A stretch of 64,000 nt of DNA from Patescibacteria group bacterium (GCA_018061755.1 JAGOTP010000002.1:35309-99308), one strand, 5' to 3'. Positions 20,816 through 34,864 are shown, counted from the stretch's first letter. Notes: generated by a model from the sequence alone, not told the origin. Numbers and translations are program-made.

Positions 20816-21098
20816 AAAATCTCCTTTACTCTCGACGTTTCCCACCAGCCACGCTCGGCTAAAAGGCCAAACAAGGAGGGTCGGTGGTTGTAAGCGAAAC
20901 GCGAGAAGCTGAATTAAGTGGCGCAAGTGTATCGAAAGATGGTTTTTTTGGCAAGAACTCGCCTAAAAACACGAAGGCCCGGCTTGGTGCATTGAGAAGG
21001 GGCTGGAATCGTTTCCAGCACCCACGCGACAGGACGTCGCGCATGCACCAACCGGGCAGAGACTTCGGGAAAGGACGAGGGGGGATCAGTTCACTGGA

Positions 21099-22421
21099 TC
21101 ACATCGCGGAGCAGACGAGGGCACCGCTGTCGCTCGCGGCACCACGAAAACCCCTGCCAGCGCCACCGTACATCTCCTCGTAACGGAGCAGTCCGGTGTT
21201 CATGGGGGCCGTACCGGCGTTGCAGAGCACCGTGATGCAGGAGAAGCTCGTCCCCGCACCGCATGAGAAGCCGCTGGGCAAGCGGCAGTCGGCCCCGCTG
21301 CAGACACTGTTGCCATCGGCTCCGAGGGGGATGCCCTCGAATCCGTAACCGCCACGCCAGTCAGTCGTGCTTGTGAAGAGGCGCGTGGGCACCTCTACGT
21401 CGGGGATCTGCAGGCGACGCAGGTCGATCCGGCAGGAACGCCGCCCAGAGGTGATCGGGGGGAGGCACGGGTTGTCGACGAAGGCACCGCGGTAGTTCGG
21501 AAAGCGACCGCTCACGATCCGCAGCCTGATCCCGACGATCTCGCCCCGCATATACACCAGCTCGAAGACCGGGTTCACCTCGGGCTCGCACACACCGCTC
21601 CCATTGCAGATGCCGGACCGGCAGAGGAGGCCGCAACGACCGCAGTGGGCGGCCGCCGTGTTGAGGTTCGCTTCGCAGCCGTTCGCCACATTGCCGTCGC
21701 AGTCACCGAAGCCGGGACGGCAGGCGTTGGCGCAGGCACCCGCACCGCAGGTCGGCGCGGCGTTGGGATTGGTCGTGCAGACCGTACCGCAGCGCCCGCA
21801 GTTGAGGCTATCGCCCTGGAGGTCGACGCAGCTCGTGCCGCAGCGGGTGAGACCCGTGGGGCAGGGCATGTCGACCGGGACGTCCGCACTCGCGTCGGCG
21901 TCGGGGGCCGTGGGGACGTCCGCGTCCGGGGTGGTTGCGGCGTCGCCGTCGGTCGGGACGTCGGGCGTGGGCACATCCGGGCGGTCGGCCAGGACGGACT
22001 CGTCCTCGGCGTCGCTACCGTCGGATCGGTCACCGCTCGCATCGGCGTCGGGCGCCGGGGTGACGTCCGCGTCCGGAGAGGTCGCGGCGTCGCCGTCGGT
22101 CGGGACGTCGGGCGTGGGGGCGTCGGGGCGGTCGGCCGTGGCGTCGTCGCCGTCGAGGGCCGCGTCGTCCGCGTCCCCGTCGAGCGGGAGGACGACGTCG
22201 CCGTCCTCGATCATGGTCACGTCCGGGTCGCTGTCGACCGGGACGTCCGCGCCGTCTTGCGGCGCGAGGTTGTCAGACGGGACATCGGTTCCCGTCTCGA
22301 ACGCCCCGTCAGGGGCAGAAGCACCAGGCGTGATCGCCTCGGTGTTGGTCGGATCCGGCTCGGCGCACCCAATCAGGGCGCCGAGCACGAACGAACCCAA
22401 CGTCAACCATACATTCTTCAT
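21099..22421 (-). CDS. Hypothetical lipoprotein (GC-rich island 5): acidic Asp/Pro/Thr repeats plus a cysteine-rich module
   Basis: N-terminus MKNVWLTLGSFVLGALIGC (lipobox-like) and GAGGAAGG upstream. Contains a 49-aa repeat present twice, then CGTSCVDLQGDSLNCGRCGTVC...CRPGFGDCDGNVANGCEANL...CGRCGLLC. A 60-nt spot count at 21901-21960 gives 48/60 G+C. Confidence 0.75.
   Translation of the reverse strand: MKNVWLTLGSFVLGALIGCAEPDPTNTEAITPGASAPDGAFETGTDVPSDNLAPQDGADVPVDSDPDVTMIEDGDVVLPLDGDADDAALDGDDATADRPDAPTPDVPTDGDAATSPDADVTPAPDADASGDRSDGSDAEDESVLADRPDVPTPDVPTDGDAATTPDADVPTAPDADASADVPVDMPCPTGLTRCGTSCVDLQGDSLNCGRCGTVCTTNPNAAPTCGAGACANACRPGFGDCDGNVANGCEANLNTAAAHCGRCGLLCRSGICNGSGVCEPEVNPVFELVYMRGEIVGIRLRIVSGRFPNYRGAFVDNPCLPPITSGRRSCRIDLRRLQIPDVEVPTRLFTSTTDWRGGYGFEGIPLGADGNSVCSGADCRLPSGFSCGAGTSFSCITVLCNAGTAPMNTGLLRYEEMYGGAGRGFRGAASDSGALVCSAM
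21893..22137 (-). repeat. In-frame direct repeat (about 97 nt, two copies, period about 147 nt) inside the island-5 ORF
   Basis: Copy 1 is about 21893-21990 and copy 2 about 22041-22137. They are near-identical (...GTCGCCGTCGGTCGGGACGTCGGGCGTGGG...) and encode ADRPD(A/V)PTPDVPTDGDAAT(S/T)PDADV. Confidence 0.7.
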
Positions 22422-22565
22422 CAGCGTGAACCTTCCTCAGCTCCATCGTAACGAAGCTGAACTGTGGAAAACGGAATGGACACCGACACCAGTCGGAACC
22501 CATGGACTACGAAGAACAGTCAGGTTTTCATCCCAACCGTTCATTGAACTCAGTGAACGAATTGT

Positions 22566-24274: not shown

Positions 24275-25402
24275 TTACCAACGAATCAGGCGATAAACCA
24301 AGCCCCAATAGACCTTTAAAATAGGGTTTCCAATATGCTCAAGGAGCGGATTTTTAACCGATTCTTCTTGAAAAGCGATCTCTGAGATTGCCGGACGCAA
24401 GAACTCCTTATCCGACAGCTTACGCACACGCTGAATCAATCGTCGACGCCCCCAAACCCAGGCGCGAAAATCTTTCGAGAACCAATCACGATAGGCGCGC
24501 CACTTCATATCGAACCAGCCATTCTTTATCGAAAATAATAGGATACCTAGATCCATGAGACAGATCATCGGCATGAGCAGCAATAACGTCGGCCAGCGAT
24601 AATACATCCAGAGCAGCACGTAACGATTGCGCTCCATGTAGTAATAATTGAATTTGTTTTTCCCGAATTCGTAGTGATGCCAGACAATAGAGGCAGGCTC
24701 AATCACCGTTTTAAAACCACGTAAACGCAAGAAAAGCGTGAGATCCGTGTCTTCGTGATACAGATAGAACTTGTTCTCAAAGAGAGGTCGCCCTTCAAGC
24801 GCGGCAATACGCACCAAGACGGCTGCGCCTGCGGCATAACCGATCTCAAGATTGGGATTCGTTTTTCTTTCGTTCGCAAGATGTGCCAATGCCTGATTCT
24901 TCGACCAACGGTAGCCATTGGAATAGCCAAAGCCTAGATAATGAAAAGCATTCCCTATGGTATTCACTTTATCCGGTTCACTCCCCAACAAAATGAGTGA
25001 CTGCACACAAGCGATCGTCGGATCCTGCTCCGCTCGCTCAACCGCTTTCAACAAATAGTCCGGATCAACGTAGGTGTCTTCATTGGTGAGATGCACGTAT
25101 TCACAACCAAGCTCCTTGGCTTTTTCTAAACCTATATTATTATTCTCGGCAAATCCCAACATTTCATCTTTCAAGATGTAAGTAATACGTGGCAATTCTT
25201 TGCCTGATTTTGGCAACCAAGTTTTGTCGAACCAGTCTTTCAACGGACCAATTTTCCACTTCGATTCTACGCAAATCAATTCGACCCGATCTTTGGGATA
25301 GTTCAGGCGTTCAAGCGAAGACAAACAACCGTTGATATCACGTTCCCATTTGGCAACAGGGAATGTCAGATAGATGATCCCAACTTTAGGTAACTGCTTC
25401 AT
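24275..25402 (-). CDS. Glycosyltransferase family 2 with a C-terminal membrane region
   Basis: Begins with a GT-A fold (IIYLTFP...ELICVES...AENNNIG), then a DxD-like NEDTYVD and YHEDTDL. Confidence 0.85.
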   Translation of the reverse strand: MKQLPKVGIIYLTFPVAKWERDINGCLSSLERLNYPKDRVELICVESKWKIGPLKDWFDKTWLPKSGKELPRITYILKDEMLGFAENNNIGLEKAKELGCEYVHLTNEDTYVDPDYLLKAVERAEQDPTIACVQSLILLGSEPDKVNTIGNAFHYLGFGYSNGYRWSKNQALAHLANERKTNPNLEIGYAAGAAVLVRIAALEGRPLFENKFYLYHEDTDLTLFLRLRGFKTVIEPASIVWHHYEFGKNKFNYYYMERNRYVLLWMYYRWPTLLLLMPMICLMDLGILLFSIKNGWFDMKWRAYRDWFSKDFRAWVWGRRRLIQRVRKLSDKEFLRPAISEIAFQEESVKNPLLEHIGNPILKVYWGLVYRLIRW

Positions 25403-25405
25403 AAA

Positions 25406-26422
25406 TCAGATAAAACGAGTGTGCGTCAAACCCATGCTTTCTAAGATCCTGCGACGCTTCCAAGCTTTTGGCCAAGCTCGTAGGGAGGCTACCATTCCTC
25501 TCACGAAAACCAACGGTGATGAAATGAATACAAATATTAGATGAGCCGTTTCATGCAGCATGGAACGCAGGAGGTCATAGACACCCAAGCGAAACGAAAG
25601 ATGGTAGGCGTAGATTTTGAACTGATTGCACAACATCGTTTCTCGCAAATGAGCCGGCCGGCGACGTTCATCTTGAATGCGCGCCCAGATGCCTTTCGGC
25701 GCTTTCACTCCACGACGATGAAAACTCACGATCGCTGGATCAAACCAAGCGTGAAAGCCTTTCCGCTTCAAGCGCAACGCCAGATCAACATCCTCCTTGT
25801 ACATGAAGAAGGTCGGATCAAACAGAAGCTTTTCCGGTGAAACGCGGTCGGTTAACGACCGACGAATCATACAGATGGCTCCTGAAACGCCCATTACCTG
25901 ACGAGCAGCTTCAAGCTTCCCCCCTGCTTCTTTACGAGTCTGCCCCGCGCAGGCATCAACCACATTAGCTAAGCAACGGTACTCAAGGGCAATCGTATCA
26001 ATCATGGTCTGGTCGGTGATTTGCCGCTCTTCTTGATCAGCAGACACCGTCCAACGATAGACAATCCCAGCAACGGCTGCCGCTTCTGGATCAAGCGCGA
26101 AACGTTGCAGGCACTTCTCTAAATGATCCGGCGCGAGATAGGCGTCTTCGTTTAATAATAAAATGTATTCAGCGTCATGCTGTTGCATGAGTGTATTGTG
26201 TCCACCCGCGAAACCAAGATTCTCCTTACTCTCTGTAAAGACGTAGGGAATACCGCTCGTCTTCAGAATATCCGCAACCTTCGCCCGTTCATCCGCGTCA
26301 CCAGAATTTTCACAACAATAAAAGATCCAATCTTGGTGGGTTTGTGCCAGCAAGCTCTTCACAAGAACCGGTAAACAAGCGGAGCTGCGGTACAAAGGGG
26401 TTTGAATCGCGATCTTAGACAT
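25406..26422 (-). CDS. Glycosyltransferase family 2
   Basis: IAIQTPLYRSS...CCENSGD...GFAGGHN...LLLNEDAY...MYKEDVDLALR are GT2 hallmarks. Confidence 0.85.
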   Translation of the reverse strand: MSKIAIQTPLYRSSACLPVLVKSLLAQTHQDWIFYCCENSGDADERAKVADILKTSGIPYVFTESKENLGFAGGHNTLMQQHDAEYILLLNEDAYLAPDHLEKCLQRFALDPEAAAVAGIVYRWTVSADQEERQITDQTMIDTIALEYRCLANVVDACAGQTRKEAGGKLEAARQVMGVSGAICMIRRSLTDRVSPEKLLFDPTFFMYKEDVDLALRLKRKGFHAWFDPAIVSFHRRGVKAPKGIWARIQDERRRPAHLRETMLCNQFKIYAYHLSFRLGVYDLLRSMLHETAHLIFVFISSPLVFVRGMVASLRAWPKAWKRRRILESMGLTHTRFI

Positions 26423-26426
26423 AGAG

Positions 26427-27341
26427 TTAAGCCTTCAGTTTTGCACGGAACGTACTAGCTATAGCTCTCAAACGATCCATCGACCAAAGACTACATAATC
26501 CAAACGGACGAGCCAGACGTAGCAACCAACTCTGCCAAGCGGGTTCCCATTTCTGAAAATACTGCACCATTGATTTCGTGAATTGCTTCTGATTCCAATA
26601 TCCTGCCTGCTGCTTGAAGCTCCGTCCAACGTAATCAACCGCTGTGATCGAGGGAACATATCGTACACTGAGTCCTTGCACTTTCATCTGACGACAGAAA
26701 TCGACTTCTTCGAAGAAAATAAAATAACGCGGATCAAGACCTGGACAGCATTTCAACGCCTCTGCTGTGATCAAAAAGAAGGATCCGCGCAAGGAATCAA
26801 CAGCTTGTTCGCGCTCAGGATCCAGGTCTTGCTGGAGGTAACGAGCCAGGACTTTCGGAAAAAGGTGTGGAAGTTTCAGAATCAGCGCTAACTGAGACCA
26901 GACATCCGGGAAACGACGAACGGTTGTGACAAGTCGCCCGTCTTCGGTTAACAGTTTTCCCCCAATGACCCCGACTTCCTCATGGCCGTCGGCATAATCA
27001 ACGAATTTGGCTAGCGCATCACTTGAAACGCGCATATCCGGGTTCAAGAGCAATACATGGCGGGCTCGGGCGACCGCAATCCCCTGGTTTACGGCATGTG
27101 AAAAACCCGTATTTGAGGTATTGCGGATAACATAGACGTCCGGAAATTGAGTTTGAACCGCCTCAGCTGTGCCATCTTTTGAGTCGTTATCGACCAAAAT
27201 AAGCTGTATTTTAAGCGAATTTTCGCTCGCGAATAGACTTTCTAGATTACGCAGAGTCAGGTCACGCACGTTGTAGCCCACCAAAATAACGGCAAGATCT
27301 GCCTCATTTGGCGGAGAAACGAAGATCGGGCGAGGAGGCAT
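26427..27341 (-). CDS. Glycosyltransferase family 2 (rhamnosyltransferase-like)
   Basis: Trimmed to the first ATG at 27341; the track start at 27356 is TTG. LILVDNDSKDGT...GFSHAVNQG...LLLNPDM...FFEEVDFC. Confidence 0.85.
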   Translation of the reverse strand: MPPRPIFVSPPNEADLAVILVGYNVRDLTLRNLESLFASENSLKIQLILVDNDSKDGTAEAVQTQFPDVYVIRNTSNTGFSHAVNQGIAVARARHVLLLNPDMRVSSDALAKFVDYADGHEEVGVIGGKLLTEDGRLVTTVRRFPDVWSQLALILKLPHLFPKVLARYLQQDLDPEREQAVDSLRGSFFLITAEALKCCPGLDPRYFIFFEEVDFCRQMKVQGLSVRYVPSITAVDYVGRSFKQQAGYWNQKQFTKSMVQYFQKWEPAWQSWLLRLARPFGLCSLWSMDRLRAIASTFRAKLKA

Positions 27342-27486
27342 GAATGGGGTTGGCAAGGCGGTCAGAGACTGGTAGGGTCGAGCCTAGTGATGTCAGAACG
27401 CTACAAGCCAGCGGAAAGTACGTCAACCAGGCGCTTTTCTCCGTCTCGACACACCCCATTCCCTATACCTGAATATCCCCTCTTTT

Positions 27487-30288
27487 ATGCGCTTGCTCGT
27501 CTGTGGTGGCGCCGGCTTCATCGGTTCAAACTTTATCCGGCACATGCTCGAAACCCATCCGAGTATTTTTATCGTGAACTTTGATAAATTGACCTATGCC
27601 GGAAATTTGGAAAATTTGAGCGATTTGGCGCACGACGCTCGCTATCGTTTTGTCCAAGGCGATATCACTGATTTGGAAGCGCTGAACCGCACAATCCAGG
27701 AACACAACCTGACGCACGTGATCAACTTTGCGGCAGAGACACACGTTGACCGTTCGATTCATGGCGGCTGCAAAGACTTCGTTTTGACCAACGTGTTGGG
27801 CGTGCAGATGCTGCTCGATGCCGTGCGGGTCAACAAATTAGAAAAGTTTGTGAACGTTTCAACGGATGAAGTTTATGGTTCATTGAACCTGGATGAAAGC
27901 ACCTACTTCACGGAAGACACACCGATCACGCCCAACATGCCGTATGCCGCGGCGAAAGCGGGGGGTGATCTGATGTGCCGGGCTTATCATAAGACTCATG
28001 GTCTACCAGTTGTCGTCACCCACTGCTCGAATAACTACGGTCCATACCAATTTCCTGAAAAGTTAATTCCGTTCTTCATTTTCAAATTGTTGAAAGGCGA
28101 GAAGGTGCCTGTTTATGGAGATGGAAGAAACGTACGTGATTGGATTCATGTCCGTGATCATGCGCGCGCCCTCGATCTTCTTCTGCAAAAAGGTCAGCCA
28201 GGCGAAGTCTACAACATCGGTGTCGACAATGAGCGCAATAACCTTGAACTCACGCAGATGATTCTTGAGATCATGGGTTTTGGGCCAGAACGCATGGAGT
28301 TCATTACAGATCGTCCAGGTCACGACCGACGCTATGCTATCGATGCAAAAAAGATTGAAGCGCTTGGCTGGAAACCTATCTATACGCGCGATGAGTTCCG
28401 CCGTGGCATGCAAGAAACGATCGACTGGTATCGCACACATACCGGTTGGGTAGAACAGCTCTGGGCAAAAAAGCGCAATGAGATGAACCAATTTCAACAG
28501 ACGCTGAATGGCGGTCAGACGCCTGCGAATGTATCAGTACCGGGGGCAATCAAAACAAATGTCGATCAAAGCAGCGCGTCTTCGCTCATGGCAGCCATAG
28601 CGAATACCACTCCATCTGTTTCCGCGCCTCTTACTAGTGGCGTGTTGATCATCGGTGGCGGTTTCTTGGGTCAGCGTTTGGCCAAGCTCATTCCAAATAG
28701 CATTGTGAGTCGAGTTCGTTTGGATGATAAAGCGGCCATCGCCGCTGAGATCACGCGCTATTCGCCACGCGCTGTCATTAATGCAACGGGCAAAACAGGC
28801 CAACCAAATGTTGACTGGTGTGAAACGCATCAGGTCGAAACCTACCAGGTCAACACGGTCGGCGCGCTCATGCTGGCTGACGTCTGTCAGGAACAAGGCG
28901 TCTACCTTGTGCACTTGGCCTCCGGTTGTATTTTCTATGGACCTTCACCAGACATGAATGGCTGGAAAGAAGAAGATGCTACCAATCCACAAGCCTTCTA
29001 TTCTCGAACCAAATACGCGGCTGACTTGATCTTGTCGCGTTTGCCGAAGGTAGCGGTTGTGCGTTTGCGCTTACCAATTGACTCTGAACCCTCTCCAAAA
29101 AACTTGATCGACAAGCTTGCGAGCTATCAGCAAGTTCTCGACGTCCAAAACAGCGTCACAGTCGTGAAAGACTTGGCGCAAGTGATCGAACAGCTGATTC
29201 AAAAACAGGGAACAGGGATTTTCCACGCCACCAATCCAGGCGCACTCCGTTATCGCGATCTGTTAAATTTGTACCGCGAGCTCGTCAATCCAGAGCATCG
29301 CTGTGAATGGATCGACGAAGATACCTTGGCCAAACGTGGTTTGGCTGCCAAAACGCGTTCGACCTGCCTGCTCCAATCGACACGTCTCGCAGAACTCGGC
29401 ATTCAGATGCGTCCGATTGAGATCGCGCTACGCGAAACGATGGAGCAGTACGCTGCACACAAACGACAGGCCGAGCCAAAAGCTCCTGCGAGCCCTGCTT
29501 CAACACCGACTCAGATACGTGTCTCGTCACCTGGTACGATTTCGTTGTCTAGCGCAAAACCAACACGTCGCATGAAAGGTCTGATTGTGGCCGGAGGTCG
29601 TGGCACACGCCTTGCCCCCCTCACCAACATCACGAGCAAACAGCTCTTGCCGATCCACAACAAACCAATGGTCCTCTATCCCCTGCAGACTCTTTTGAGT
29701 TCAGGGGTGAGAGATATTCTGATCGTTACGGGTCCCGAATATCCGCATCACTTCGTAAAATTACTGGGATCGGGAGCGAACTATGGCTGCCGCATTAGCT
29801 ACCGCATTCAGGATGAAGCCGGTGGCATCGCTCAAGTGGTTGGCATGGCTGAAGATTTCGTTGGCGATGACAATGTGGCTGTGATTTTAGGCGACAACAT
29901 CTTTGAAGACACGTTCCCGCAAGAACTAAGCCAGTTCACCGAAGGGGCGCTTGCCTTCTATAAACCAGTGAGCGACGCTCAACGCTTTGGTGTCATGGAA
30001 ATCGACCCAAGCGGACGTGTCCTATCAATCGAGGAAAAGCCGAAACAGCCAAAATCGAACTTCGCCCAGGTCGGTTTGTACGTCTACGATTCCAGCGTCT
30101 TCGATGTCGTCCGAACTCTAAAACCATCAACCCGTGGCGAACTTGAGATCACGGATGTGAACAACGCATTCTTGGCTACTGGCAAGCTCAAAGCCGCCCC
30201 AATTCAAGGTTTTTGGTCAGATGCTGGCACGTTCGACAGTCTGAAGCGCGCAACCGACTTCTTCTCAAGTCGTGACGGCGGGATGTAG
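27487..30288 (+). CDS. Three-domain fusion: NDP-glucose 4,6-dehydratase, RmlD/NRS-ER-like epimerase-reductase, and sugar-1-phosphate nucleotidyltransferase
   Basis: aa 1 to about 335: GGAGFIGSNF, STDEVYG and the YAAAK (YxxxK) motif, RmlB-like. aa about 385-655: GGGFLGQ and YSRTK (YxxxK), with LRLPIDSEPSPKNLIDKL...GIFHATNPGAL resembling RmlD / plant NRS-ER. aa 696-933: MKGLIVAGGRGTRLAPLT...LGDNIF, RmlA-like. One uninterrupted ORF. Confidence 0.85.
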   Translation: MRLLVCGGAGFIGSNFIRHMLETHPSIFIVNFDKLTYAGNLENLSDLAHDARYRFVQGDITDLEALNRTIQEHNLTHVINFAAETHVDRSIHGGCKDFVLTNVLGVQMLLDAVRVNKLEKFVNVSTDEVYGSLNLDESTYFTEDTPITPNMPYAAAKAGGDLMCRAYHKTHGLPVVVTHCSNNYGPYQFPEKLIPFFIFKLLKGEKVPVYGDGRNVRDWIHVRDHARALDLLLQKGQPGEVYNIGVDNERNNLELTQMILEIMGFGPERMEFITDRPGHDRRYAIDAKKIEALGWKPIYTRDEFRRGMQETIDWYRTHTGWVEQLWAKKRNEMNQFQQTLNGGQTPANVSVPGAIKTNVDQSSASSLMAAIANTTPSVSAPLTSGVLIIGGGFLGQRLAKLIPNSIVSRVRLDDKAAIAAEITRYSPRAVINATGKTGQPNVDWCETHQVETYQVNTVGALMLADVCQEQGVYLVHLASGCIFYGPSPDMNGWKEEDATNPQAFYSRTKYAADLILSRLPKVAVVRLRLPIDSEPSPKNLIDKLASYQQVLDVQNSVTVVKDLAQVIEQLIQKQGTGIFHATNPGALRYRDLLNLYRELVNPEHRCEWIDEDTLAKRGLAAKTRSTCLLQSTRLAELGIQMRPIEIALRETMEQYAAHKRQAEPKAPASPASTPTQIRVSSPGTISLSSAKPTRRMKGLIVAGGRGTRLAPLTNITSKQLLPIHNKPMVLYPLQTLLSSGVRDILIVTGPEYPHHFVKLLGSGANYGCRISYRIQDEAGGIAQVVGMAEDFVGDDNVAVILGDNIFEDTFPQELSQFTEGALAFYKPVSDAQRFGVMEIDPSGRVLSIEEKPKQPKSNFAQVGLYVYDSSVFDVVRTLKPSTRGELEITDVNNAFLATGKLKAAPIQGFWSDAGTFDSLKRATDFFSSRDGGM

Positions 30289-30297
30289 ACTGTCCGC

Positions 30298-31470
30298 ATG
30301 TCAAAACAAAAACTCGTCCTCTTAGGTGGTGGCTTTGCCGGAACCTGGATCGCAACCCACGCTTGCCCTGCGCACAACGATCAATTGGAAGTCACATTGA
30401 TTTCAGAAGAATCGCACTTCACCTTCAGCCCTCTTCTCATTAATGGTTTGGCAGGCGACTTGGATCCACAAGATTTCACGATTGATTTAGCGAAACTCGC
30501 GACTGAACGCGGGTTTCGTTTTGTTCAAGGGAAAATCTCACTCGTCAATCGGGAGAAGCAAATCGTCGAAGTAGAACAAACCGACGGGAAACGGAGCGAA
30601 ATAGCGTACGATCAGGCCGTCTTAGCGACTGGCTCAGAAGCCAATTTCTTCGATATTCCTGGCCTGAAAGAAGCATCTTTTGCCTTGAAACGTCTAAGCG
30701 ATATCGATCGCTTGATTAATCACTTAGAAACCGTTCTCGTCACAGCCTCCAAGACCTGGACAGATGAAGATAAGCGGAAACTCCTGTCGTTTTTGATCGT
30801 TGGAGGGGGGCCAACCGGAGTGGAGCTCCTTGGAGCGATGCGTGAACGTTTGCGCAGAATCGCAGAGAATCGCGGTCTCGAAGATCTCCTACCACTCATT
30901 AGCATCACGTTGGTTGAGTCAAATAATTTGTTATTCTACGGATTCCCCGAGCACCTGTCTCAACAAAGCGAACAAGTCTTGAAACAAGGGGGTGTGGATA
31001 TTCGCTGCGGAGTACGTGTCACAGGTGTTGAGAAGGGTGTGGCTACGTTATCTGATAATTCATCCCTGAACTATCACACGCTTATCTGGGCTGCCGGTGT
31101 AAAACCTGTTTGGCCAACCATCGAACCCGCCTTCGCTCCCGGCCCACTCAAAACGGATGCCTTTTTACGCCTTGATGATCATCTCTATGGCGCAGGAGAT
31201 GCGATCACATTTGAACAAAATGGAGTAAAATTTCATAAAAATGCACAATTTGCGTTACAGATGGCACATGATGTCTTGCAGAATATTCTACGGAACGTAA
31301 AAGGCCAGCCTCTGGTCGCGCCAAACCGCAAATACAACGCCGCACTCGTGACAGTGTTGCAAACCGGTTTTTTCCGTCTGGGATCGTTCGTCTTGCAAGG
31401 CCCTTGGATCCATCCGTTCCGGAAACTCTTGTATCGTTTCCGTTTGTGGCAGATTCGGTCTGGTCACTAG
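30298..31470 (+). CDS. Type II NADH dehydrogenase-like FAD-dependent oxidoreductase
   Basis: Two dinucleotide-binding motifs, LLGGGFAG and IVGGGPTGVE, with NDH-2-like spacing. Confidence 0.8.
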   Translation: MSKQKLVLLGGGFAGTWIATHACPAHNDQLEVTLISEESHFTFSPLLINGLAGDLDPQDFTIDLAKLATERGFRFVQGKISLVNREKQIVEVEQTDGKRSEIAYDQAVLATGSEANFFDIPGLKEASFALKRLSDIDRLINHLETVLVTASKTWTDEDKRKLLSFLIVGGGPTGVELLGAMRERLRRIAENRGLEDLLPLISITLVESNNLLFYGFPEHLSQQSEQVLKQGGVDIRCGVRVTGVEKGVATLSDNSSLNYHTLIWAAGVKPVWPTIEPAFAPGPLKTDAFLRLDDHLYGAGDAITFEQNGVKFHKNAQFALQMAHDVLQNILRNVKGQPLVAPNRKYNAALVTVLQTGFFRLGSFVLQGPWIHPFRKLLYRFRLWQIRSGH

Positions 31471-33980: not shown

Positions 33981-34006
33981 GTCGCGTTGGTTCGTGGGGT
34001 GGTAGT

Positions 34007-34864
34007 TCAGGCTTCAGGGAGCGGACCGCGGACGATATTCCGCACCTTGTCACCGACGCGGAGCGTGCAGGGGCCGGCATGGATCAGACTGGCACCGAAG
34101 AGGGCGACCAGCTTGCCGCCACCCTTGCTAACACCATGAATGCGTTCGAGCGTAGCGAGAGGCTCCTGGCTTCTACGCTCACCTGTACGCTGGTCAGTCG
34201 TAATGATGGGGCAGCGCGTACGCCGCTTCACGTGGTGGAAATGGCCATCATTGATGTAGAACTCGCTGCATCCATCCTCGCCCCAGGGTCCTCCCATCCC
34301 CGTGACGACGATATTCGAACGGAAGTTCGCCATCGGATACGGACCCTCCCCAGCAGGCAGCTCCGCGTTGAGAGCAGCGAGGGATGCCTCGCTCGTCAGA
34401 GTGAACGGGCAGCCATCGGGGAAGCGGGTGCCCGTCGTGACATCCTTCGGCCGACGGCTCGGAACACGAGCGTGATCCGGAGGCGTCCCCACGAGTAGAA
34501 CATTCTGGCGCAGAAGATCAGAGAAGAAGTCGCGCGCTTCCCGACCCTGATCGACCGTCATGCTCGTATCGCCCCAGATAGTACCGGGGACACGTTCCCC
34601 GCTTTCCCAGGTAGAACGAGTGATGCTGAGCCGGCCATGCTCCCCGCCCTCAACCGTGACGACGAGGGCCCTGGGCGTCAGGTTGCAGATGACCTGAGCA
34701 AGCTCAGGATGATCACGCTGCGTGACAAACCGGCCCGAGGCTCGATCGATGATCATGAGACGACGATCGTGGCAGATGCCGAACTCATCGACCTCCGCCT
34801 CCTCGAGTGACGTTGCCCGACAGGACTTGATGTAATGCGCGAACAGACCAGTGACGACGCACAT
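34007..34864 (-). CDS. MOSC domain protein (N-terminal beta-barrel plus MOSC), GC-rich island 6
   Basis: CDS preceded by CCAAGGAGG. HDRRLMIID...FVTQRDHPELA...RFPDGCPFTLTSEASL...FRSNIVV...RCPIITTDQRTGE is the MOSC_N plus MOSC pattern with the conserved Cys. Strong GC3 bias. Confidence 0.85.
   Translation of the reverse strand: MCVVTGLFAHYIKSCRATSLEEAEVDEFGICHDRRLMIIDRASGRFVTQRDHPELAQVICNLTPRALVVTVEGGEHGRLSITRSTWESGERVPGTIWGDTSMTVDQGREARDFFSDLLRQNVLLVGTPPDHARVPSRRPKDVTTGTRFPDGCPFTLTSEASLAALNAELPAGEGPYPMANFRSNIVVTGMGGPWGEDGCSEFYINDGHFHHVKRRTRCPIITTDQRTGERRSQEPLATLERIHGVSKGGGKLVALFGASLIHAGPCTLRVGDKVRNIVRGPLPEA

Follow-up and report, generated by a model that had tools for sequence, protein, structure and literature searches.

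A 64,000-nucleotide stretch of DNA from a Patescibacteria group bacterium (GCA_018061755.1 JAGOTP010000002.1:35309-99308), referred to here as the window, contains an open reading frame (ORF) of 933 codons in which an RmlB-type 4,6-dehydratase domain, an NRS/ER-type (below, ER-type) domain and an RmlA-type nucleotidyltransferase domain are joined. This single polypeptide probably provides the full route from glucose-1-phosphate (Glc-1-P) to deoxythymidine diphosphate-L-rhamnose (dTDP-L-rhamnose), or possibly to uridine diphosphate-L-rhamnose (UDP-L-rhamnose), with the ER-type domain replacing both RmlC and RmlD. The reading draws on the identities of the domains, the conservation of catalytic residues, the lack of rmlC, and patterns of phyletic occurrence and synteny; from these we infer which activities the protein has, what it produces, and which cofactor and nucleotide it prefers. 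Reviews and surveys describe RmlA-D as the bacterial route and place the bifunctional NRS/ER (Uger) enzyme in plants, fungi, algae and giant viruses (PMC8987622; 10.1101/854612; PMC6556577).

Domain organization and predicted pathway

The fusion is composed of three domains and two linkers, located in the window as follows.

27487..30288 (including the stop codon), + strand: three-domain ORF (RmlB - ER - RmlA), ATG start, 933 aa, no internal stop
27487..28500, + strand: domain 1, aa 1-338, dTDP-glucose 4,6-dehydratase of the RmlB type (TIGR01181, 6BI4)
28501..28638, + strand: linker 1, aa 339-384, rich in S, T, A and P, disordered (lengths in homologs, model confidence)
28639..29466, + strand: domain 2, aa 385-660, NRS/ER-type (UER/Uger-type) predicted nucleoside diphosphate (NDP)-4-keto-6-deoxyglucose 3,5-epimerase/4-reductase (matches to 4QQR and 7JID, residues, tree)
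29467..29568, + strand: linker 2, aa 661-694, rich in P, S, A and T, disordered (lengths in homologs, model confidence)
29569..30285, + strand: domain 3, aa 695-933, short glucose-1-phosphate thymidylyltransferase of the RmlA type (PF00483, TIGR01207, 4HO0)

The original prediction, made from the sequence alone, had described a single open frame of 933 residues with three domains joined by low-complexity linkers. The analysis bears this out: the 933 codons include zero internal stops, and every motif quoted at the time is present, namely GGAGFIGSNF (aa 7-16) and YAAAK (aa 153-157) in the first domain, GGGFLGQ (aa 390-396) and YSRTK (aa 505-509) in the second, and GGRGTRLAPLT (aa 703-713) in the third. 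The anticipated Pfam architecture was also obtained, with GDP_Man_Dehyd/Epimerase at aa 4-304, RmlD_sub_bind at aa 392-655 and NTP_transferase at aa 697-926; Pfam and NCBIfam together delimit the catalytic modules as aa 1-327 (dehydratase), aa 386-655 (RmlD_sub_bind) and aa 696-927 (NTP_transferase). The conservation of residues was assessed in an alignment of 19 triple fusions that are 46-83% identical. An AlphaFold2 model built from this alignment contains three folded domains, for which the predicted local distance difference test score (pLDDT) is mostly 75-97, with a few surface loops lower, and falls to ~25-30 over residues 336-383 and 664-692, i.e., in the linkers.

The middle domain, which had been proposed to be NRS/ER-like, is placed with NRS/ER rather than RmlD by its best PDB matches, its catalytic pair and its position in the tree. 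RmlD and NRS/ER share one common fold. When compared with all PDB sequences, the domain is most similar to Arabidopsis NRS/ER (4QQR, E=5e-50) and to the mimivirus UDP-L-rhamnose synthase L780 (7JID, E=1e-29); for the best bacterial RmlD, the E-value is only 5e-11. The BLASTP bit scores are 173 for NRS/ER and 117 for L780, versus 47-60 for RmlDs. The rmlD profile TIGR01214 scores 128.7 bits, below its equivalog cut-off of 224.05, which leaves the domain outside classical RmlD membership. In a tree rooted on RmlD, it falls within the NRS/ER-type clade, split from RmlD with 99% support in the Shimodaira-Hasegawa-like approximate likelihood ratio test (SH-aLRT), and it has indels that are common to NRS/ER and L780 and missing in RmlD. 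The reductase triad S479, Y505 and K509 is present together with the Rossmann motif GGGFLG (aa 390-395). The pair C481 and K543 aligns to the epimerase acid/base pair Cys108/Lys175 of L780 and to C115/K183 of Arabidopsis NRS/ER; in L780, this pair was found by comparison with GDP-fucose synthase and proven by mutagenesis (PMC9614988). C481, Y505, K509 and K543 are invariant in 19/19 triple fusions, and the position equivalent to C481 is occupied by Tyr in classical RmlDs, including those of the sister Patescibacteria lineages G040 and G029. The single-domain short-chain dehydrogenase/reductase (SDR) fold, the S/T-Y-K triad and the Cys/Lys pair are therefore common to this domain, Arabidopsis NRS/ER (UER1, 4QQR) and L780 of Acanthamoeba polyphaga mimivirus (7JID), its homologs. 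In contrast to both, the domain described here is flanked by bacterial RmlB and RmlA domains, is encoded in a bacterial genome, and likely acts on dTDP-linked rather than UDP-linked sugars.

The first domain scores 457.2 bits against TIGR01181 (cut-off 365.1), with aa 2-325 covering profile positions 1-321 of 321, and its best PDB match is the dTDP-glucose 4,6-dehydratase 6BI4 (E=3e-108), followed at a distance by the mimivirus dehydratase 6VLO (6e-69). It contains the motif GGAGFIGS (aa 7-14) for nicotinamide adenine dinucleotide (NAD), and T126, D127, E128, Y153 and K157 are invariant in the triple fusions; the catalytic roles of the Thr-Asp-Glu and YxxxK residues are well established for RmlB. 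The third domain matches PF00483 with E=1e-56 (192.6 bits vs a cut-off of 21.2), retains all of the RmlA motifs intact (GGRGTRLAPLT, SKQLLP, LGDNIF, EEKP and WSDAGT), and is >50% identical to active RmlAs over the whole catalytic core. Its best matches are all thymidylyltransferases, including 4HO0 (E=8e-71, residues 1-238 of 297 aligned). Q775, the Gln of the YRIQD motif, is invariant in the triple-fusion alignment, and we take it to correspond to the thymine-contacting Gln83 of P. aeruginosa RmlA.

To judge from these matches, the dehydratase and nucleotidyltransferase domains are of the ordinary bacterial dTDP type, so that the protein appears to be a hybrid, bacterial RmlA and RmlB with a 'plant/virus-type' epimerase-reductase, and not a homolog of the eukaryotic RHM protein with an extra domain. 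The resemblance to RHM noted earlier from the sequence holds insofar as a dehydratase and an NRS/ER domain lie on one chain, and fails insofar as it implied RHM plus one more domain. Plant RHM (RHM1-3/MUM4, the trifunctional UDP-L-rhamnose synthase) likewise has an N-terminal 4,6-dehydratase followed by an NRS/ER-type domain, and one such protein, P0257 from Phlomoides, aligns over residues 3-644 of the query in a single stretch. However, plant RHM has no nucleotidyltransferase and starts from UDP-glucose, whereas the dehydratase domain of the fusion is nearest to bacterial dTDP-glucose dehydratases. Set beside the bacterial RmlABCD pathway, the RmlA and RmlB domains are typical of their families; the differences are that the cupin RmlC is absent, that RmlD is replaced by the NRS/ER-type domain, and that all steps would be located on one polypeptide.

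In the pathway that we propose, the C-terminal short RmlA domain would couple Glc-1-P to deoxythymidine triphosphate (dTTP), with uridine triphosphate (UTP) possibly accepted, to form NDP-glucose. The N-terminal RmlB domain, using tightly bound NAD+, would oxidize C4 and eliminate water across C5/C6, producing NDP-4-keto-6-deoxyglucose. The central NRS/ER-type domain would then epimerise C3 and C5 by means of the acid/base pair C481/K543, and the same active site would reduce C4 with NAD(P)H via S479, Y505 and K509, leading to NDP-beta-L-rhamnose. The central domain would thereby replace both RmlC and RmlD, which are missing from the genome.

Absence of RmlC and alternative readings

The source genome (1.15 Mb, 93% complete, 37 contigs) was searched for the cupin epimerase RmlC, which the original prediction had reported missing from the window. 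It is indeed missing there, and none is detectable in the rest of the genome. PF00908 gave no match at E<=1 in this 93%-complete genome, while the control was positive in 11 of 14 reference genomes, and tblastn of the whole genome (E<=10), for which RmlC proteins from two sister lineages served as queries, gave nothing real. The best tblastn candidate for a hidden RmlC, on contig C14 (E=0.012), was rejected because the frame is Arg-rich junk within a GC-rich region. No RmlD-like or RmlA-like sequence other than the fusion was found in the genome.

For a comparative test, the same 251 genomes of the class were scanned for PF00908 and for the ER-type domain (E<=1e-45). PF00908 was matched in only 1 of the 28 ER-positive genomes, which come from 14 families, compared with 158 of the 223 ER-negative genomes (71%). 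This complementarity has a Fisher p of 2e-12, a value that overstates the evidence since the genomes are related; it is repeated within families f23, f56 and f67. Natural controls are provided by G040 and G029, which have separate rmlC-rmlB-rmlD-rmlA genes, and in G011, G014, G017, G018 and G020 an rmlB gene is followed by an ER-rmlA gene with no adjacent rmlC. The ER gene occupies the place that rmlD has in the classical operons, which keep rmlC. By this pattern of occurrence, the ER-type domain is a putative stand-in for RmlC plus RmlD in the sampled class, with 27 of its 28 bearers being without RmlC.

Several further points weigh against the assignment of a complete pathway to the fusion. 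In a genome that is 93% complete and divided into 37 contigs, an rmlC gene could conceivably lie in an assembly gap. G247 is the lone ER-positive genome with an RmlC-family match, a weak one (E=7.8e-10), possibly from a different cupin sugar isomerase or from a genome in transition. The middle domain shares no more than 36% identity with Arabidopsis NRS/ER and 29% with L780, the sequence cannot tell the stereochemistry of the product (L-rhamnose or, e.g., 6-deoxy-L-talose), and biochemical data for any bacterial member of the ER clade were not found in the literature searched. The RmlA domain scores 258.9 bits against TIGR01207, below the cut-off of 360.65, and covers profile positions 1-237 of 286 only; it ends near residue 238 of ~293, so that the last ~50-55 residues found in classical RmlA, where the oligomerisation and regulatory region lies, are missing. 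The domain may therefore be active or regulated in a different way. Finally, the link between rhamnose and the glycosyltransferase genes next to the fusion (see below) is an inference from synteny and a sub-threshold match.

The alternative that survives best, which we consider unlikely, leaves the pathway complete and changes the carrier: as in plants, fungi and giant viruses, UTP and Glc-1-P would be converted to UDP-L-rhamnose. Characterised NRS/ER-type enzymes use UDP-sugars and accept dTDP-sugars too, L780 prefers the UDP-linked substrate (PMC9614988), and Salmonella RmlA variants with bound UDP-glucose are present in the PDB (1MP4, 1MP5), indicating that the fold can bind a uridine nucleotide. 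However, both outer domains fall among bacterial dTDP enzymes, as indicated by the TIGR01181 score and by the preference for 6BI4 over 6VLO; moreover, the thymidylyltransferase matches of the RmlA domain and the invariant Gln of its YRIQD motif both argue for dTDP.

It is less probable again that the middle domain is a 4-ketoreductase only, or has a different outcome, in which case the product would be a 6-deoxyhexose other than L-rhamnose (e.g., dTDP-D-quinovose, dTDP-D-fucose or 6-deoxy-L-talose), or epimerisation would be carried out by an unrecognised enzyme. The domain does match Pfam RmlD_sub_bind and, below the cut-off, the TIGR01214 rmlD profile; its identity to the characterised NRS/ER enzymes is modest, and the literature searched did not yield an assayed bacterial member. 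On the other side, both of the epimerase residues defined by mutagenesis in L780 are invariant, with RmlDs having Tyr at the Cys site, and the domain is much nearer to NRS/ER than to RmlD. RmlC is missing in nearly all domain-bearing genomes and present in most others, and the ER gene sits at the rmlD place of operons that retain rmlC. A different solution for uniting 3,5-epimerase and 4-reductase in one chain is the RmlC-RmlD fusion of Prymnesium parvum and some bacteria; the P. parvum RmlCD makes both UDP- and dTDP-L-rhamnose (PMC6556577). RmlCD is a two-domain fusion of a cupin with an SDR, whereas the protein described here contains no cupin and is predicted to catalyse both reactions in one SDR active site.

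The third alternative, that one domain is dead or purely structural, most likely the truncated RmlA, and that another nucleotidyltransferase feeds the fusion, is in our judgment very unlikely. It would account for the early end of the RmlA domain and its score below the TIGR01207 cut-off, and two distant triple fusions with a degenerate GxGTRL motif, P0024 and P0025, demonstrate that the domain can decay. Nevertheless, every RmlA motif is intact in the fusion described here, its identity to active RmlAs exceeds 50% over the catalytic core, and another RmlA-like gene was not found in the genome. The shortening need not mean inactivity, because the classical operon of the sister lineage G040 has a free-standing RmlA of 241 aa that is equally short.

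Integrity, distribution and origin of the fusion

The linkers, which had been described as low-complexity, are S/T/P/A-rich, variable in length and disordered in the model. Across the 19 homologous triple fusions, linker 1 comprises 13-63 aa and linker 2 comprises 17-41 aa, with the frame always kept, and the catalytic domains are well conserved. The exact 933-aa product, with the same neighbours, was found on independently assembled contigs from four SRA runs (SRR25679421, SRR11088367, SRR25679424 and SRR31843402). Full-length orthologs free of stops (71-84% identity) are present in seven further genomes of the genus, so that the frame is open in eight species in total; in the remaining two genomes, the gene is interrupted only by contig ends. 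The openness of the frame across the linkers is thus confirmed by independent assemblies and by other species. Because the frame is intact in eight genomes of the genus and four assemblies, and because the linker indels are in frame, the fusion appears to be under purifying selection. The close relatives G018 and G011 carry one in-frame stop at the rmlB/ER junction, so that a single sequencing error could mimic a fusion. An artefactual origin of the long ORF, whether through an overlooked stop, a frameshift, chimeric assembly or pseudogene read-through of three genes, is nevertheless effectively refuted by the identical product in separate runs, by the intact fusions of the other species and of the ~24 clusters counted below, and by linker differences that consist of in-frame indels only.

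The addition of a nucleotidyltransferase had been regarded as the unusual feature of the protein. This was not borne out, as a two-domain ER-RmlA protein of ~540 aa is common in Patescibacteria, and the rare step is the fusion of RmlB. The ~540-aa form accounts for ~95 of the 120 clusters listed, including some named Candidatus Uhrbacteria or Magasanikbacteria; the triple fusion accounts for ~24 clusters at 90% identity among the matches listed. A search of representatives clustered at 50% identity returned zero triple-fusion representatives, such proteins being subsumed under two-domain clusters. In the two-domain proteins, of which a 'sugar nucleotide-binding protein' from Candidatus Uhrbacteria is an example, the ER and RmlA domains are 56-63% identical to those of the fusion. 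Their loci are arranged alike, rmlB lying upstream and a glycosyltransferase gene of family GT2 being divergent; the difference is that rmlB is separate there and fused here. In Patescibacteria, the common arrangement is therefore ER-RmlA beside a separate rmlB, and the rare one is RmlB joined to ER-RmlA.

The phylogeny of the RmlB domain was used to assess the origin of the triple fusion. The clade of the genus groups with the unfused rmlB of G017 and G018 (100% support), and the other triple fusions group with the unfused rmlB of G011, G014 and G020. Constraining the fusions to one clade in this tree was rejected by the approximately unbiased (AU) test (p=1.4e-4); therefore, the fusion arose at least twice. 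The ER-RmlA tree alone, the backbone of which is unsupported, is compatible with one origin. Apparent triple fusions in G011, G020, G029 and G040 were rejected because inspection revealed separate genes, those of G040 and G029 being classical rmlCBDA operons.

Traces of the route to fusion are visible at the rmlB/ER junctions. In the sister genera represented by G018 (L016 2557-2567) and G011 (L013 2629-2671), rmlB and ER-rmlA share a frame and are kept apart by one stop codon only, TAA in G018 and TAG in G011; the junction in G018 reads ...TKTTNE*LCMKYLIIG. One substitution at this stop would make a triple fusion. In the second type of triple fusion (P0016-P0025), linker 1 always ends in a Met just before KILIFG. 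This Met is a relic of the start of the once separate ER-rmlA gene, and internal initiation at it could still yield a two-domain protein. In the 933-aa protein, linker 1 corresponds to the former rmlB stop codon plus the intergenic spacer. The order of the domains in the fusion, B-ER-A, is the gene order rmlB-rmlD-rmlA of the classical operons in sister lineages. A plausible series of events would start from the classical rmlC-B-D-A layout of those lineages, with an ER gene coming to stand in the place of rmlD and rmlC being absent. The ER gene would next have been fused with rmlA, the state that is common in Patescibacteria, and rmlB would have been joined last through loss of its stop codon, in a genus-specific event here and independently in at least one other lineage. 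Since fusion from adjacent genes by stop-codon loss took place at least twice within Patescibacteria, independently of plant RHM, the protein is best regarded as a fusion analogous to RHM rather than as its ortholog.

Other arrangements of the same domains were also encountered. P0024 and P0025, triple fusions that are 46% identical, have a degenerate version of the RmlA motif GxGTRLxPLT, AAGNRSMLSPQAN and AGGSAASVRGGSG, and the nucleotidyltransferase domain may be decaying in their lineage. P0256 (HEX3095604.1, Patescibacteria group bacterium, 716 aa) has the plain RHM architecture, with RmlB and an ER-like domain and no RmlA; its sole annotation is dTDP-glucose 4,6-dehydratase, and its ER domain is on a very long branch. 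Stand-alone bacterial ER homologs with 57-62% identity are found in Polyangiaceae, Myxococcaceae and Pendulispora (Myxococcota), in Methylomirabilis, and in many metagenomes. Among the candidates scored in the search for stand-alone homologs, 1159 clusters reached E<=1e-20, and some of these homologs are labelled '3,5-epimerase/4-reductase' by JGI.

Genomic neighbourhood and significance

The genes next to the fusion in the window are the following.

26427..27356 (gene callers start at 27341), - strand: GT2_c glycosyltransferase, candidate rhamnosyltransferase (PF00535, E=2e-20)
25406..26422, - strand: GT2_b glycosyltransferase, second gene of the divergent operon (PF00535, E=7e-13; synteny kept in the genus)
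24275..25402, - strand: GT2_a, GT2-like glycosyltransferase (weak PF00535 match, E=1e-6; same order in independent assemblies)
30298..31470, + strand: pyridine-nucleotide-disulphide oxidoreductase-family gene, 10 nt after the stop codon of the fusion (PF07992, E=4.5e-35)

The three divergent GT2 genes that had been noticed upstream of the fusion are confirmed, at 24275..27356. The best NCBIfam match of GT2_c is the rhamnosyltransferase family TIGR01556, at only 47 bits vs a cut-off of 200. An ortholog of GT2_c lies divergent beside rmlB or the fusion in 7/7 loci of the genus and in G011, G020, G014 and G018, a partnership with rmlB that extends through the family, and the layout of GT2_b and GT2_c divergent from the fusion, which is followed by the Pyr_redox_2 gene, is kept in 7/7 loci of the genus. 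The divergent GT2 genes probably use the product of the fusion for a rhamnose-containing envelope glycan. The flavoprotein encoded by the Pyr_redox_2 gene has a sub-threshold match to TIGR03169, and a homolog with 29% identity follows the ER-rmlA gene in G014. Elsewhere in the window, there are GC-rich islands at 21000-22500 (66-71% GC) and 34000-34500 (63% GC) in a genome of ~49% GC; an ORF of 440 aa in the first of these (21099..22421) has no Pfam match.

The triple fusion is a new architecture assembled from known enzyme families, not a new mechanism. No description of bacterial NRS/ER enzymes or of these fusions was found in the literature searched. In public databases, proteins of this kind carry the name 'dTDP-glucose 4,6-dehydratase/glucose-1-phosphate thymidylyltransferase' or 'sugar nucleotide-binding protein', and the names given to the triple fusions leave out the middle function. 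Because the epimerase function is missed in annotation, pathway reconstructions would call rhamnose synthesis incomplete in such organisms. If active as predicted, the single chain could serve as a convenient biocatalyst in the production of dTDP- or UDP-L-rhamnose, for which one-pot four-enzyme mixtures are now used (PMC8606822, PMC13210114).

Yin et al. (2011) reported four bacterial homologs of NRS/ER, all from Verrucomicrobia, and asked whether the prokaryotic bearers were 'largely extinct'; their hypothesis was that of a prokaryotic donor with an integrated epimerase-reductase beside rmlB and rmlA (PMC3220709). A tentative extension of our results, which we regard as possible and rather doubtful, is that the rmlB-ER-rmlA locus type represents the missing donor of that hypothesis, from which eukaryotic NRS/ER and RHM were derived, that RHM-like fusions have repeatedly evolved in bacteria, and that the 933-aa chain is self-sufficient and possibly channels the reactive 4-keto intermediate. 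Eukaryotic NRS/ER was seen nested in the bacterial clade in the RmlD-rooted tree; we do not claim this placement, as the stem is long, the position is unsupported, and only three eukaryote/virus sequences plus two of unknown origin were included.

The presence of the ER-type domain in 28 of 251 genomes of one Patescibacteria class contradicts the textbook split between bacteria and eukaryotes, and the prokaryotic ancestry of RHM and NRS/ER is directly testable with these sequences. The loci also provide an example of gene fusion in reduced genomes: the change from two genes to one requires a single substitution in a stop codon, a step that has been taken at least two times.

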